DNA of 64,000 nucleotides from positions 1-64,000 of IMG/VR virus record IMGVR_UViG_3300037761_000271, one strand, 5' to 3'. Both the position numbers and the translations under genes were made by a program. The notes below the pieces were generated by a model. The model made no database searches. It worked only from the letters and a program-made list of their open reading frames with translations, and was not told the origin of the DNA. Shown here piece by piece: positions 1,839 to 59,272 of the stretch; the first letter of the stretch is position 1, and every line of letters starts with the position of its first letter. The stretch is from a virus (taxonomy: Duplodnaviria; Caudoviricetes).

Positions 1839-1899
1839 GCCCGGGTCAGGACCTGTCCTATAAGCAGGCTGTGGTCGGGTTCGATCCCCACCCGGCGCA
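1839..1899 (+). pseudogene. D-arm-less tRNA-like element, anticodon TAT (Ile-like)
   Basis: CCGGGT/ACCCGG stem; CCTGT-CCTATAA-GCAGG arm; GGTTCGATCC T-loop; no D arm. Confidence 0.45.
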
Positions 1900-1910
1900 C
1901 GCAAGATCAT

Positions 1911-52886: not shown

Positions 52887-54076
52887 GACTGCCACGGTGG
52901 GTGCACCGGTTGTACGCTGCGGCGGGCGGCTGGTTCTGGCTGCCGTGCCCGGCATGCGGCGAGCACTTCGGCGGGCATGAGGCCGGCAACTGCTCCCGCG
53001 GTACCCGCACGGTGTGCCGCCGCTGCTCGGCCAGCCTCCGCTGCTGTGGTGGCGTGACGGTCAACGGCGAGCGGTTGCACCTGTCGTACGCCGGCCAGCC
53101 GGCAGGAGTAGCAGCTGTGACGCGGCTGGTCTGCTGGCTACGCGGGCATCAGCCGGTGAAGGTCATCGAGCGGGTCAAGCTGGACTCTGTCACACCGTGG
53201 GGAGCGGTCTGGGGCATAGTTGCTGCTCGGCTGGAATGCAGGCGGTGTGGTAGGACCGTAATCGGGGTCCCGCCGCGCCGCAGGGGTGAGCTGCCCGGCG
53301 GGTGGGTCGTGCCGTGACTGACCCGACCCCCGACTATCCCACGCAGTGGATCACCACCGATGCGGTTCGCAACAGCAGGCCGCCAGCAGGTCAGGCCCGG
53401 ACCTACCGTCAGCCGGCGTACACGGTCGGCTGGGTATGCGCGGTCGGCTCGTTGGCGCTGGCCCGTCTGATCGACCCGGACTGGCTGGCCGCTGTGACCG
53501 TGCTGGTCGCCTACCTGGCCGGTGGCTGGTGGATGCGTACCACCTACCGGCAGGCGAGGCCGGACCCGGTGCTCGTGTACGACCGCTGGCTTGCCCACCG
53601 CCGCCGCTGGACACCTGCCGACGTGGCCGCCTGGCTGGTCTACCGGTCGGGCCGCCTGGCCTGCCGGCTGCTGCGACGCCACAACGTGAGCTGTCGCGGC
53701 CGCCTGGACCATGTACGTCCCGACGGGACCGTGATCGAGGCGGGCAGCCGTGGCTGACCCGGCTTTGCCCAACCGGGTCGAGGTTGAGGCGTGGCTGGCA
53801 TCCCGCGCCCACCCCACCGGCTGGGCCACCACCTTGACGGGCCTGCCGTGGGAGATCATCCACCCGGTGTGCCGCATCGCCGCCGCCAGCCGTGTCCACC
53901 CGGCCGTAGTGCTCGGGGCGGCTGCGGCGTACACCGGCGACCGGGGCGACCGGGGCGTCCGGCAGGCCATCACCCAGCAGCTGACCCACCACGGCCACAC
54001 CCCACCCCCAGGCACCGGACCCAACCGCGCCACCCGCCGCGCCCAGACCAGGAACAGCCGCCGCGCTGCGAGGTGA
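52883..54076 (+). CDS. Hypothetical genes (52883-53317, 53314-53757, 53750-54076)
   Basis: Coupled ORFs. Confidence 0.55.
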
Positions 54077-54616: not shown

Positions 54617-54943
54617 ATGTTTCGGAGCGGGGAGGTCCGGCTCGTGGCAGCTCGAACAAGGCGGCTCCGTGCGGTAGGGCCAGGTGAGTCCGCGCAGGGA
54701 AGGAAGCCACCGCGTGTGACGGTAGCGGCCCAGAGCGGCAGCCACAGGGATCTGCTGGTCGCTCTGCGGTCCAGGATTGCCCAGGCAGTCGAGGACCCGA
54801 ACACGCCACCCCGGGATCTGGCGTCACTGTCGCGGCGGCTGCTGGAGATCGCTAAGGAGATCGAGGCGATCGATGCCGACGACCAGGGGGACGAAGTTGG
54901 TGCGGCAGCCGCGACGCCGGACGAACCGTGGGCTGCTACCTGA
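54617..54943 (+). CDS. terS: Terminase small subunit (start uncertain)
   Basis: DLLVALRSRIAQAV...PRDLASLSRRLLEI; position. Confidence 0.7.
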   Translation: MFRSGEVRLVAARTRRLRAVGPGESAQGRKPPRVTVAAQSGSHRDLLVALRSRIAQAVEDPNTPPRDLASLSRRLLEIAKEIEAIDADDQGDEVGAAAATPDEPWAAT

Positions 54944-56387
54944 GGCCCGTCACCTGATCTTGCCGAAGGGGATCCGGTCGTCCGGGTTCCCTTCGGTGCG
55001 GGAGACGTGCCGACGTGTCGGTATCGAGTTCGACCGGTGGCAGCAGGATCTGAACAGGTGCCTGCTGGCCAAGGACGCGGCCGGGTTGTACGCGGCCGAC
55101 ACCGCGGTGCTGTCGATCGCGCGCCAGGTGGGTAAGACCTTCGACGTGGGTGCGGTGGCGTTCGCGTTGTGTATCGCCACGCCGGGTCTGACGGTGGTGT
55201 GGACGGCGCACCGGTTCAAGGTGTCGCGCGAGTCATTCAACGAGATGCGGGCATGGGCGAAACGGCGCCAGCTCGCCGCGCACATCGACTACGACGAGAT
55301 CACCACTGGGGCGGGGAACGAGCAGATCCCGTTCCGCAATGATGCCCGGATCGTGTTCGCGGCCCGGGAGCGTGGGGCGATCCGCGGGTTCACCAAGGTC
55401 GGGGTGCTGGTGCTGGACGAGGCGCAGATCCTGACCGAGGCGGCGCTGTCGGACCTGGTGCCGACGACCAACCAGGCGCCGAACCCGCTGGTGATCCTGA
55501 TGGGCACACCGCCGAAGCCGACCGACCCGAGTGAGGTTTTTGTCCGGCTGCGGCAGGAGGCGCTGGACGGCGAGTCGGATGATGTGCTGTACGTCGAGCT
55601 GTCCGCCGACGCGAACGCCGACCCGAACGACCGTAGGCAGTGGCGCAAGGCGAACCTGTCGTACCCGGCCCGCACGTCGGAGCGGGCGATCCTGCGGCTG
55701 AAGAAGCTGCTGTCGGCCGAGGATTTCCTGCGGGAGGGGCTGGGGGTCTGGCCGGAGGGCGGCCTACCGAAGTGGCAGGTAATCAGCGAGGCGGCGTGGC
55801 TGGCCCGGCAGAAGACCACCCGCGCGCAGCTTCGGCTGGTCGACCCGGTGACGCTGGGGGTGGATGTCACCCCGGACCGGACCTGGTCGGCGGTCGCCGC
55901 CGCCGGTGACCGGGTCGGTGGCGGCCGGGCGGTGGAGGTCACCGCCGACCCGCAGGCGGCCGAGCTGCGGGACCGGGTGGACTACCGGCCGGGCACCGGC
56001 TGGGTGATACCCCGGCTGAAGACGCTGGTGGAACGCAACCGGCCGTGTGTGATCGTGATATCGGACCGGGCGCTGTTCGAGGAGGCCGAGGCGGCTGGGC
56101 TGCCGGCCTACCGGGCCAGCACCGGCGACCTGGCGTCGGCGGCGGCGAAGCTGTACGACGGGATCGCCGGCACCACCCCGGACGTGTGGCACTCACCCGA
56201 CCCGGACCTGGCCGATGCGGCGGCGGGGGCGACGAAGCGTCCGCTCGGCGATGGGTGGGCGTGGGACCGCCGCTCGGTCAGCGTCAACATCTGCACCCTG
56301 GTCGCCACCAGCCTGGCGTTGTGGGGGGCGGCAACACCTCGCATCCACGTTGCCCGGTTGACCCCGTTCGCCCTCGTCGGCAGCTAG
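54897..56387 (+). CDS. terL: Terminase large subunit
   Basis: ARQVGKT; WTAHR; RGF...LDEAQ; GTPP; LGVDV nuclease motif. Confidence 0.93.
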   Translation: MVRQPRRRTNRGLLPEARHLILPKGIRSSGFPSVRETCRRVGIEFDRWQQDLNRCLLAKDAAGLYAADTAVLSIARQVGKTFDVGAVAFALCIATPGLTVVWTAHRFKVSRESFNEMRAWAKRRQLAAHIDYDEITTGAGNEQIPFRNDARIVFAARERGAIRGFTKVGVLVLDEAQILTEAALSDLVPTTNQAPNPLVILMGTPPKPTDPSEVFVRLRQEALDGESDDVLYVELSADANADPNDRRQWRKANLSYPARTSERAILRLKKLLSAEDFLREGLGVWPEGGLPKWQVISEAAWLARQKTTRAQLRLVDPVTLGVDVTPDRTWSAVAAAGDRVGGGRAVEVTADPQAAELRDRVDYRPGTGWVIPRLKTLVERNRPCVIVISDRALFEEAEAAGLPAYRASTGDLASAAAKLYDGIAGTTPDVWHSPDPDLADAAAGATKRPLGDGWAWDRRSVSVNICTLVATSLALWGAATPRIHVARLTPFALVGS

Positions 56388-56390
56388 ATA

Positions 56391-56485
56391 CCCTCGCCTT
56401 GCCCCGCCTGGCCAAGCCAGGCCCGGCCTTGCCGCACCTAGCCATGCCCGGACTCGCCGTACCCAGCCGTGCCCCGCCAGGCCAC
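56391..56485 (-). ncRNA. GGY-NN pentamer array A (18 units), putative guide RNA
   Basis: Plus-strand units gcctt gcccc gcctg gccaa ... gccac in exact 5-nt register; 2 GGT and 1 GTC variants. Confidence 0.85.
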
Positions 56486-56486
56486 G

Positions 56487-57026
56487 CTAACTTTCTCCTC
56501 GCTCCAGCCGCTCCAGCCGAGCCTTGAGTTCCGCGATCTCCTCCTCGGACCGCTCGTGACGCTGGTCCATCGACGACAGGGACTCCTCCAGCCGTTTCTG
56601 TCGGATGTCCATCCGCCGGTTGAAGTCCATCTGTGCGGCGAATGCCCGCGCAACCAGCTCGAATGCCTGCCGGGTGTCCGGGTCCATGCCCGAGAAGTCG
56701 ACGTGGACCACCTTCGAATGACCGGAGCGTAGCGCCCGGTTCGACTTCCGCTGCTGCTGGCGGGCAAGCTGCATGTGCTCGGGTGGCCTCACCACCCGAT
56801 AGCCCTGGTTGGGGACCGCCTCGACCGCCCGCTTGTCGATCAGCTCATGTTCGCGGGCGGCCCGCCGCATCGCCATCTGTAGCTGGTGCCGGTCCCGGAC
56901 AGGATGCAGGCCGAGGGCGTCACCCATCTGCTGGTAGGTGAGGGTGTGGGCGGTCTCGGTGGCCCGGAGCAGGTCGTAGACGATCCGCCACCGGGGTTGC
57001 TCGCCGAGTGGCTGGAATGGTGCCAT
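56487..57026 (-). CDS. Accessory protein of the cassette, possible wHTH plus coiled coil
   Basis: ATG overlaps the upstream TGA; TLTYQQMGDALG...PNQGYRVV. Confidence 0.8.
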   Translation of the reverse strand: MAPFQPLGEQPRWRIVYDLLRATETAHTLTYQQMGDALGLHPVRDRHQLQMAMRRAAREHELIDKRAVEAVPNQGYRVVRPPEHMQLARQQQRKSNRALRSGHSKVVHVDFSGMDPDTRQAFELVARAFAAQMDFNRRMDIRQKRLEESLSSMDQRHERSEEEIAELKARLERLERGES

Positions 57027-57598
57027 CACGCGGTCTCGACCTTGGCGATGAACCGGCCGTAACGGGGGCGCCAGTCGCCCAGCCCGATCAGTTGTCCGGC
57101 GGTTTCGGCGATCGCCTCGACCTCGGCCAGGTCGATGACGTTGGTATCGATGTAGCCGAGGGCATCGGTGCGCCACTCGCGGAACATGGGCCGGCAGCGC
57201 ATGACCCGCTGCTGCCCGACCTTGGCGGACGCCAGCAGTCGGAAGTTCTCATCGGCCCACAGTCCGGCCGCGTCGCGTGGCCCGCGGTAGGCGAGCGGGT
57301 TCAGGTCGGACTTGATGAACACGCCTTCCTTGACCTTCGGCCCGCGCTTGGACTTCTTCGCCGCGTCGTAAAGGGCGCGCCAGATGTTCTCACCGGGGAT
57401 GAATGGGCCGATCTCCGAGTCGATGTAGAGCGACCCGGCGTGCTCCAGCCGGGCGATCTGTTCGTGGTCATCGTCGGTCTTGTTGCGCTTCCCGGTGATC
57501 CGCTTCATGGCCTTTGCGGCTGGGTCGAGCGGGTTGGACAGCCTGCCGCTGTGCATGAGCAGGCTGGTTGTGCCTTCGATGGTGATGCGGAAGTCCAT
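57026..57598 (-). CDS. RAMP/Cas7-like protein (Vipr-like effector)
   Basis: ITIEGTTSLLMH strand; PFIPGENIWRAL resembles the RAMP P.IPGS.KG motif; Gly-rich GLGDWRPRYGRF loop; GAGGAG RBS. Confidence 0.8.
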   Translation of the reverse strand: MDFRITIEGTTSLLMHSGRLSNPLDPAAKAMKRITGKRNKTDDDHEQIARLEHAGSLYIDSEIGPFIPGENIWRALYDAAKKSKRGPKVKEGVFIKSDLNPLAYRGPRDAAGLWADENFRLLASAKVGQQRVMRCRPMFREWRTDALGYIDTNVIDLAEVEAIAETAGQLIGLGDWRPRYGRFIAKVETA

Positions 57599-57624
57599 TT
57601 CCCCGTGCTCCTCGTGTTGGTAGT

Positions 57625-57699
57625 TCCCTGCCGCGCCCAGCCGTGCCTCGCCGAGCCCAACCTAGCCAGGCCGCGCCGGGCCCGGCCCCGCCCCGCCTT
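57625..57699 (-). ncRNA. GGY-NN pentamer array B (14 units), putative guide RNA
   Basis: Exact 5-nt register from 57630 to 57699. Confidence 0.85.
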
Positions 57700-57702
57700 G
57701 CG

Positions 57703-57744
57703 TGCGGTGGTCGGGAGTCGAACCCGACTGATGACCATCACCGC
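57703..57744 (-). ncRNA. tRNA-like acceptor/T-arm minihelix between arrays
   Basis: GCGGTG-atggtcatca-GTCGGG-TTCGACT-CCCGAC-CACCGC-A. Confidence 0.75.
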
Positions 57745-57746
57745 GC

Positions 57747-57816
57747 CCCATGCCCCGCCTCGACAAGCCGTGCCAAACCAAGACTCGCCACGCCCAGCCT
57801 CGCCTGGCCAAGCCGT
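57747..57816 (-). ncRNA. GGY-NN pentamer array C (13-14 units), putative guide RNA
   Basis: Exact 5-nt register from 57752 to 57816. Confidence 0.85.
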
Positions 57817-57819
57817 GCA

Positions 57820-57870
57820 CCCGCAATATACCACGCTTTACGGGATACATACCACGTCTATACCGTGATA
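57820..57870 (-). promoter_or_regulatory. Cassette promoter with repeated operator-like boxes
   Basis: Extended -10 TGgTATATT (minus strand, 57825-57833); ATACCACG at 57828 and 57849; ATACCGTG at 57860. Confidence 0.6.
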
Positions 57871-57883
57871 GAGGGGATGCTGT

Positions 57884-59272
57884 GTGAGCTGGTGGCGGAG
57901 GCTGCTGGGGCTCCAGCGGGCCACCAGCACCGAGTTGCAGAAACGGTCGGCCCTGTCCTGGCAGGATTATGTTGATCTTTTCAGTTTTGGTGGCTCCAGC
58001 TATCCGCTGCTGAACACCACCATGGCCTCGATGAACGAGGAGGCCATCGGGTCGACCCTGTCGCAGGTGGCCAAGTCCAACGGGCCGGTATTCGCGCTGC
58101 TGCTCGCCCGGCTACAGGTGTTCTCCCAGGCCCGGTTCCAGTGGACCCGCTTCGACCGGGGGGCGCCCGCCGACCTGTTCGGCACGGACGAGCTGGCTGT
58201 GCTGGAGCGGCCGTGGCCGGGTGGAACCACCGCGGACCTGCTCGCCCGGATGGAGATCCAGGTCACCACTGCCGGGAACGCCTATGTGCGCCGGGTCGGC
58301 CGGGGCGAGAAGTCCCGGCTGATCTGCCTGCGGCCGGAGTGGATGTACATCGTCCTCGGGTCGCAGACCGACGCCGACCACCCGGCCGAAGCCGCCGACG
58401 TGGAGCTGCTCGGCTACGTCTACAAGCCACCCAACGCGAAGATGGTCACGTTCCTGCCCGAGGAGATCGCTCACTACGCGCCGATCCCGGACCCGGACGC
58501 CACCTACCTGGGCATGTCCTGGATCACCGCCGCCCTGCGGGACATCTCCGGCGACAACCTGATGACCGACCACAAGCGCGCCTTCCTCCGCAACGCGGCC
58601 ACCCCCAACATGGTGATCAAGTTCGACCCCAGCATCACGCTTGCGGCGGTCAAGGAGTTCAAAGAGGTCTTCGAGGCCGAGCACCAGGGCGCGCTGAACG
58701 CATACAAGACGGTGTACCTGGGCGGCGGCGCCGACGCGACCGTGGTCGGCAAAGACTTCCAGCAGTTGGAGTTCGCGGTCACCCAGGGCAAGGCCGAGTC
58801 GCGGCTGGCATCCTGCGCCGGGGTCCCCCCGTCCTGGGTCGGATTCTCCGAAGGGCTCCAGGGTTCGTCGCTCAACGCGGGCAACTTCACCGCCGCCAGG
58901 CGCCGCTTCGGCGACGGAACCATGCAGCACATGTGGATGAACGTCGCCGCCAGCCTGGAGATCCTGGTCCGCCGACCCAGCGTCGGCGTGTACCTGTGGT
59001 TCGCCACGAAGGGCATCCCGTTCCTGCACATGGACGCGAAGGACGCGGCCGAGGTGCAGGCCACCGAGGCGCAGACCATCACCGCGCTGGTGCGGGACGG
59101 GTTCACCGCCCAGTCGGCGATCCTCGCGGTCCAGAACCACGACTGGTCCCGCCTGGTGCACACCGGGAGGGTTTCTGTCCAGCTCCAGACCCCCGGTGAG
59201 GCGGACGCGGCGCAGGTCAACGGCAACGGCGCCCGGCGCGGAGAGCTGATCGTCGGTGCCCTGCGGCCATGA
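57884..59272 (+). CDS. Portal protein
   Basis: Position after terL; TTAGNAYV; LRPEWM; F..NAATPN; GVPP. Confidence 0.9.
   Translation: MSWWRRLLGLQRATSTELQKRSALSWQDYVDLFSFGGSSYPLLNTTMASMNEEAIGSTLSQVAKSNGPVFALLLARLQVFSQARFQWTRFDRGAPADLFGTDELAVLERPWPGGTTADLLARMEIQVTTAGNAYVRRVGRGEKSRLICLRPEWMYIVLGSQTDADHPAEAADVELLGYVYKPPNAKMVTFLPEEIAHYAPIPDPDATYLGMSWITAALRDISGDNLMTDHKRAFLRNAATPNMVIKFDPSITLAAVKEFKEVFEAEHQGALNAYKTVYLGGGADATVVGKDFQQLEFAVTQGKAESRLASCAGVPPSWVGFSEGLQGSSLNAGNFTAARRRFGDGTMQHMWMNVAASLEILVRRPSVGVYLWFATKGIPFLHMDAKDAAEVQATEAQTITALVRDGFTAQSAILAVQNHDWSRLVHTGRVSVQLQTPGEADAAQVNGNGARRGELIVGALRP

Follow-up and report, generated by a model that had tools for sequence, protein, structure and literature searches.

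A tRNA top-half mimic between the guide arrays of a phage VIPR locus is a candidate substrate for host tRNA-processing enzymes

How might an RNA-guided phage system with one RAMP protein and several guide arrays release its individual guides without a Cas6-type nuclease? The question is raised by a locus in an 86.5-kb virus record from a sediment metagenome (IMG/VR record IMGVR_UViG_3300037761_000271). We analyzed a stretch of 64,000 nucleotides from this record, which we will call the window. It contains a two-gene minus-strand cassette between the genes for the large terminase (54777-56387) and the portal protein (57884-59272). An earlier note on this DNA had described a RAMP protein with NN-GGY guides, had identified a tRNA minihelix between two of the guide arrays, and had proposed that host tRNA processing could release the guides.

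The product of the first gene of the cassette matches the "SUSP1 Vipr protein" (PDB 36pp_D; E = 9.8e-31 over residues 4-187) and phrog_4652 (E = 9e-55). The product of the second gene is 35% identical to gp77 of Gordonia phage MakoManhole, which is annotated as a "DNA binding protein"; it has no match to any Pfam or PDB family. VIPR (Viral Interference Programmable Repeat) is a form of RNA-guided DNA silencing that is related to CRISPR and has been proposed to be older than CRISPR. VIPR systems comprise the Vipr RAMP protein, a vap gene, and vrRNAs made of GGY/NN units, which read DNA with a 1-nt skip (bioRxiv 10.64898/2026.04.26.720920). Given a Vipr homolog that matches 36pp_D and three NNGGY arrays on the gene strand, the locus is, as judged from its sequence, a VIPR system of the kind already described in 2026 preprints, and the "guides" are vrRNAs. 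This bears out the wider context that the earlier note had described.

We will call the three arrays A, B, and C (Table 1); the window has no other strong period-5 array. All of them consist of NNGGY units on the vipr strand. Array A begins 1-2 nt past the stop codon of vap, and its end lies in sequence antisense to the terminase gene. Array B leads directly into the ribosome-binding site of vipr (57599-57699 (-)), with no separator; as a speculation, Vipr could autoregulate its own translation by binding this leader. Two weak period-5 runs (53984-54033, and 83772-83811 beyond the window) resemble coding-sequence noise.

Almost every array, in this locus and in its relatives, is closed by a terminal NNGG+purine unit (ATGGG, AGGGA, and GAGGG here). 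This holds whether or not the array has a tail, and it includes five arrays of the Felix O1 type. Since the Y pocket of Vipr excludes purines, according to the Vipr structure paper, the terminal unit may be the 3' boundary of the Vipr filament.

Under the 1-nt-skip rule, we found no targets in the phage's own 86-kb genome at the VIPR paper's threshold (80% or above). The best genome match of array C is to the 5' region of the portal gene (57956-57996 (+)), with 20 of 28 NN letters. This is below the 80% cut-off; the maximum from 200 shuffles of the unit order was 19. For arrays B and A, no match in the 86-kb genome beat their shuffles.

A scan of 56300-57950 for terminators and for consensus sigma-70 promoters (requiring a -35 box) found nothing. 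By eye, we read an extended -10-like box, TGGTATATT, upstream of array C. Transcription from this box may start at about the first unit of array C, in which case the 5' end of guide C may need no processing.

Table 1. Features of the VIPR locus and of the element between arrays C and B (window coordinates)
Feature	Coordinates	Strand	Basis or remark
vap-like accessory gene, 180 aa	56487-57029	-	overlaps the vipr stop codon
vipr gene, 190 aa, RAMP protein	57026-57598	-	matches to PDB 36pp_D and phrog_4652
vrRNA array A: 18 units (56485-56396) and terminal GAGGG (56395-56391)	56391-56485	-	period-5 scan
vrRNA array B: 14 NNGGY units (57699-57630) and terminal AGGGA (57629-57625)	57625-57699	-	period-5 scan
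vrRNA array C: 13 NNGGY units (57816-57752) and terminal ATGGG (57751-57747)	57747-57816	-	period-5 scan
Extended -10-like box TGGTATATT	57825-57833	-	read by eye
Acceptor stem, 5' strand, GCGGTG	57739-57744	-	sequence reading and covariance model
10-nt linker ATGGTCATCA	57729-57738	-	contains conserved GG; resembles G18 G19 of the D-loop
T-arm: stem GTCGGG (57728-57723), loop TTCGACT (57722-57716), stem CCCGAC (57715-57710)	57710-57728	-	T54 and C56 invariant in the family
Acceptor stem, 3' strand, CACCGC, and discriminator A	57704-57709 and 57703	-	CCA not encoded
CGC trailer	57700-57702	-	conserved; immediately 5' of array B

The element between arrays C and B has 42 bases and mimics the top half of a tRNA: a 6-bp acceptor stem and a 6-bp T stem together give 12 bp, the T stem is closed by a G:C pair, and the discriminator is a purine. 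The features expected of a tRNA top-half substrate (a coaxial acceptor and T stem of about 12 bp, a T-loop, and G53:C61) are all found. The earlier note's 12-bp stem, TTCGACT loop, discriminator A, and 10-nt linker hold to the base when read on the minus strand, and its placement of the element between arrays C and B was correct (C ends at 57747 and B starts at 57699). Its term "minihelix" holds only in part. The element mimics an acceptor stem with a T-arm, but it is not a plain minihelix, because the GG-containing linker breaks the 5' strand and because most relatives have 11 bp. Nor is it a complete cloverleaf, as just 10 nt connect the acceptor strand to the T stem.

ARAGORN does not call the element in the window, and neither does Rfam at its gathering thresholds, or at E ≤ 10 over 57550-57900 (tRNA and tmRNA models included). 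Folded by itself, the element has an energy that does not stand out (z = -0.54). The minimum free energy structure is an alternative hairpin (-20.3 kcal/mol), which is more stable than the tRNA-like fold (-19.4 kcal/mol) by 0.9 kcal/mol. So, the support for the element comes from comparison with other loci and not from thermodynamics. We built a covariance model (R1) from 36 tails of other loci, leaving out the window copy. R1 scores the window copy at 34.4 bits (E = 3e-5), which is its top match in the 64-kb window; the second-best match is the T-arm of a real tRNA. Also, of all the occurrences of the motif GGTTCRANYCC in the 86-kb genome, which number five, four fall in the tRNA cluster (1.8-3.3 kb) and the fifth in the element.

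For the comparison, we collected 140 further non-redundant Vipr loci (141 with the window) from annotated phages, IMG/VR, genomes, and metagenomes. (Loci L018 and L021 are in the Planomonospora genome G001; a search with the Vipr protein of 401 genomes of its class found only the already-known one.) Across the 140 loci (574 kb, both strands), R1 has 106 matches at E ≤ 0.01, and all of them are on the vipr strand. The same module follows arrays in the Gordonia phages Trine and MakoManhole, the Mycobacterium phages LittleE and prophiBWHA-1, a Planomonospora prophage, and many uncultured viruses. From 5' to 3', the family has a terminal NNGGR unit, a spacer of 0-16 nt, an acceptor strand of 5-7 nt, a linker of 10-11 nt with GG, the T-arm, the other acceptor strand, and a purine discriminator. 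After the discriminator, 60 of 92 copies have CGC, and the next array mostly starts 4-5 nt past the stem (3-7 nt overall). The stack is 11 bp long in 59 of these 92 copies, 12 bp in 25 (including the window copy), and 13 bp in 8.

A pairing test that is free of selection gave the same picture. A single geometry, with its anchor 4 nt ahead of the following array, was applied to every inter-array gap that measured 35-90 nt (129 in all). At least 10 of the 11 pairs formed in 39 of the 129 gaps, as compared to 0.08% for shuffles and 0-2 gaps for shifted anchors. RNAalifold predicts the same fold de novo. In an alignment of 106 distinct copies, pairing holds in 99.3% of cells, and compensatory changes are seen at 10 of the 11 pairs; none of 500 shuffles reach the observed covariation score, and shuffled and slid controls are not close. 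In the T-loop, T54, C56, and R57 are present in all 106 copies, T55 in 97, and A58 in 98. G53:C61 is kept in 105 of the 106 copies, and the two positions of the linker GG are G in 100 and 104 of them. At the level of sequence, the T-loop, G53:C61, and the linker GG are the signature of a tRNA elbow, and by these alignments the minihelix is a conserved module rather than a chance feature.

This conservation bears on the idea that the element is a decayed tRNA gene, the remnant of an attachment site, or a functionless chance match. Fragments of tRNAs do occur at phage att sites, a tRNA cluster is present in this phage, and neither ARAGORN nor Rfam recognizes the element. But VIPR loci hold over 100 copies whose position and strand are constant and whose two stems both show compensatory changes, and no tRNA in this genome has the same 3' half. 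We consider this explanation to be extremely improbable. Specifically, we dropped an att-site or tRNA remnant as a candidate: the 3' half of the element is single-copy in the 86-kb genome, and the module is conserved with covariation elsewhere.

The module also departs from tRNA in one contact. In the commonest subclass (alignment A2), linker columns 14-15 covary with loop columns 29-28 (AU 16, GC 7, CG 6, UA 3). Canonical tRNAs lack such a pair between a linker and the T-loop; in the VIPR module, it is a tertiary or pseudoknot-like contact. In the window's own subclass, this contact possibly joins GGU of the linker to ACU of the loop.

Where the module sits suggests what it is for. Among the module-bearing loci, it is present on 61 of the 81 arrays that are followed by another array, as compared to 11 of the 82 that are followed by vipr or by nothing (Fisher test, 3e-16, with loci that are not fully independent). 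The window fits this pattern, with the module at the C/B junction and none on arrays B or A. Similarly, 28 of 29 vipr-proximal arrays of relatives lack it. In four loci (Trine, or L003, and L037, L122, and L154), a module follows a stop codon and precedes the first array, so that no guide lies upstream for it to tail. These positions favor punctuation over an obligatory guide handle.

The gain and loss of the module point the same way. Loci whose Vipr proteins are over 90% identical can have minihelices, plain GC hairpins, or uninterrupted long arrays. The module is gained or lost independently of the Vipr protein, which argues for a signal that is read by the host.

As an instance of uninterrupted arrays, locus L006 (Vipr 92% identical) has unbroken arrays of 22 and 27 units at L006:2364-2473 and L006:3617-3751, where its close relatives have two or three arrays that are split by minihelices. 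The reported length of vrRNAs is 9-16 units, so the L006 arrays are longer.

RNase Z and the CCA-adding enzyme act on acceptor/T-arm substrates, as RNase P does. RNase P measures the stack of the acceptor and T stems, and it needs the T-loop but not the D-loop (PMC4919913). The tRNA genes of this phage that we read (Val, Arg, and Cys) do not encode CCA, so the host must mature CCA-less 3' ends after the discriminator.

We think it rather likely that the element is a tRNA top-half mimic that punctuates the vrRNA arrays and is read by the host's RNase P and RNase Z. One minus-strand transcript, probably starting at the extended -10 box, would carry arrays C and B, vipr, vap, and array A. The host's tRNA-maturation enzymes would recognize the acceptor/T-arm stack and the elbow, with the linker GG standing in for the D-loop. 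A cut by RNase P at about 57744/57745 would set the 3' end of guide C, and an RNase Z-type cut at about 57703/57702, after the discriminator, would give guide B a 5' end that reads CGC-AAGGC. We infer the co-transcription, the identity of the enzymes, and the cut sites from the arrangement of these features. The earlier note's proposal, that host tRNA processing could release the guides without a Cas6, fits the elbow signature, the strand, the spacing (~4 nt), and the enrichment between arrays.

Several observations count against punctuation. Arrays B and A have no separator from the vipr and vap mRNA, which implies that there must be other ways of defining guide ends. In most copies, the stack has 11 or 13 bp instead of the 12 bp of tRNA, and the interruption of the 5' strand by a linker of 10-11 nt is unlike a classical minihelix substrate. 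The covarying pair between linker and T-loop, and the more stable alternative hairpin in single-sequence folding, also speak against it.

The main competing explanation comes from the type II VIPR systems of Escherichia phage SUSP1 and a Pseudomonas fulva prophage (bioRxiv 10.64898/2026.04.26.720920, 10.64898/2026.04.26.720927, and 10.64898/2026.10.15.759431). The window locus shares with these systems the Vipr RAMP protein, a small accessory gene of putative DNA-binding type, the location in a phage, GGY/NN pentamer guides that flank the genes on both sides, the terminal NNGGR unit, and a structured element after an array. In SUSP1, every vrRNA has a 3' pseudoknot tail that stays on the RNP and caps the filament. 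The module could be this clade's counterpart of that pseudoknot. It would then stay on guide C, cap or bound the Vipr filament, and protect the 3' end. The module would be parted from guide B by no more than one cut, made behind the discriminator, and the likeness to tRNA would reflect the re-use of a compact T-loop fold.

In favor of a retained tail, the module sits where the SUSP1-type tails do, behind an array and its terminal NNGGR unit and ahead of the next array, and the SUSP1 pseudoknot has been seen on the mature RNP. The covarying pair would be the pseudoknot-like element, and a single cut explains the positional statistics equally well. Nevertheless, we view a retained tail as fairly unlikely. 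It does not account for the scarcity of modules on last or vipr-adjacent arrays, for modules that follow stop codons, or for nearly identical Vipr proteins with and without the module. Also, T54, C56, G53:C61, and the GG are closer to invariant than a generic cap would require. Tails of the SUSP1 type are H-type pseudoknots and come after every array, whereas the window element is an acceptor/T-arm mimic that is found mainly between arrays.

The covariation between columns 14 and 29 had raised the narrower possibility that the element is itself a SUSP1 pseudoknot tail. We rejected this, as Felix O1-type tails differ from the element in both sequence and topology. In a Felix O1-type locus (L170), tails beginning with "atgggtagttagtctcatctac..." follow all five arrays.

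The cutting might instead be done by the phage. Vipr, which as a RAMP protein is kin to Cas6 and Cas7, or another phage factor could recognize the module and cut it in the manner of Cas6; or, the module could merely insulate the filaments while general RNases trim the unprotected RNA. The plain GC hairpins at the same place in close relatives make a structure-only function plausible. But the VIPR papers that we consulted report no nuclease activity for Vipr, and a structure-only role leaves the tRNA-specific loop and the conserved GG unexplained. We judge both of these ideas, taken together, to be improbable. Punctuation by host enzymes remains our preferred reading.

Some VIPR arrays of types I and V are separated by hammerhead ribozymes (fig. 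S19 of bioRxiv 10.64898/2026.04.26.720920). In those loci too, a processing element lies between adjacent guides of one transcript. Hammerheads cleave themselves, whereas the element would depend on host enzymes: we found no ribozyme family, hammerhead included, in the window or in a scan of 57550-57900 at E ≤ 10.

Compared to tRNA (RF00005), the module shares the acceptor stem, the canonical T-loop arm, G53:C61, and the purine discriminator, but it lacks the anticodon arm, the D stem, and an encoded CCA, and its acceptor and T stems are each 5-7 bp. A GG strand replaces the D-loop, as in the tRNA-like domain of tmRNA. Punctuation by tRNAs is also known from mitochondrial transcripts, from MALAT1/mascRNA, and from synthetic polycistronic tRNA-gRNA arrays; in these transcripts, RNase P and/or RNase Z is brought in by a tRNA or tRNA-like unit and frees a neighboring small RNA. 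The herpesvirus MHV68 likewise borrows host tRNA processing: its tRNA-like units and the host's tRNase Z release pre-miRNAs (PMC3534370). All of these rely on full or nearly full cloverleaves in eukaryotic systems, while the VIPR module is a top half of 40-45 nt, in bacterial viruses, and next to guides that target DNA.

Although the VIPR system is known, the tRNA-like separator is absent from the text of the VIPR papers that we consulted. The guide architectures described there are pseudoknot-tailed, staggered, hammerhead-interspersed, and single-guide only, and the word "tRNA" does not appear in their main text. A literature search found no paper with both "vrRNA" and "tRNA-like". Apart from the hammerhead arrays, the VIPR paper text leaves the excision of guides from longer transcripts unexplained. 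A mimic of the tRNA elbow would offer a concrete and testable route, via host tRNA enzymes, and it would explain how a one-protein system does without a Cas6-type nuclease.

More tentatively, a large and mostly high-GC (actinophage-type) clade of VIPR systems may mature its guides by natural tRNA punctuation, via RNase P and RNase Z; we consider this to be slightly less likely than not. If true, nature would have its own version of the engineered tRNA-gRNA arrays, and Cas6 and hammerhead ribozymes would be joined by a third way of freeing guides. Once cut out, the minihelix of 40-45 nt, possibly tailed with CCA, might have its own role. Also, the module would be a compact natural design for expressing multiple guides, at about 45 nt per separator. 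The culturable phages that carry it (LittleE, Trine, and MakoManhole) make the idea practical to test.

Two minor observations concern related sequences. Just upstream of tRNA-Val, at 1840-1903 (+) of the window, there is a further T-arm with an acceptor 3' end (GGTTCGATCCCC...CGGCGCA, then CGC), which neither ARAGORN nor Rfam calls. And in Trine, gene 40 (L003:3091-3894, annotated as "hypothetical protein") is unlikely to be a real gene, since it spans two vrRNA arrays as well as three minihelices.
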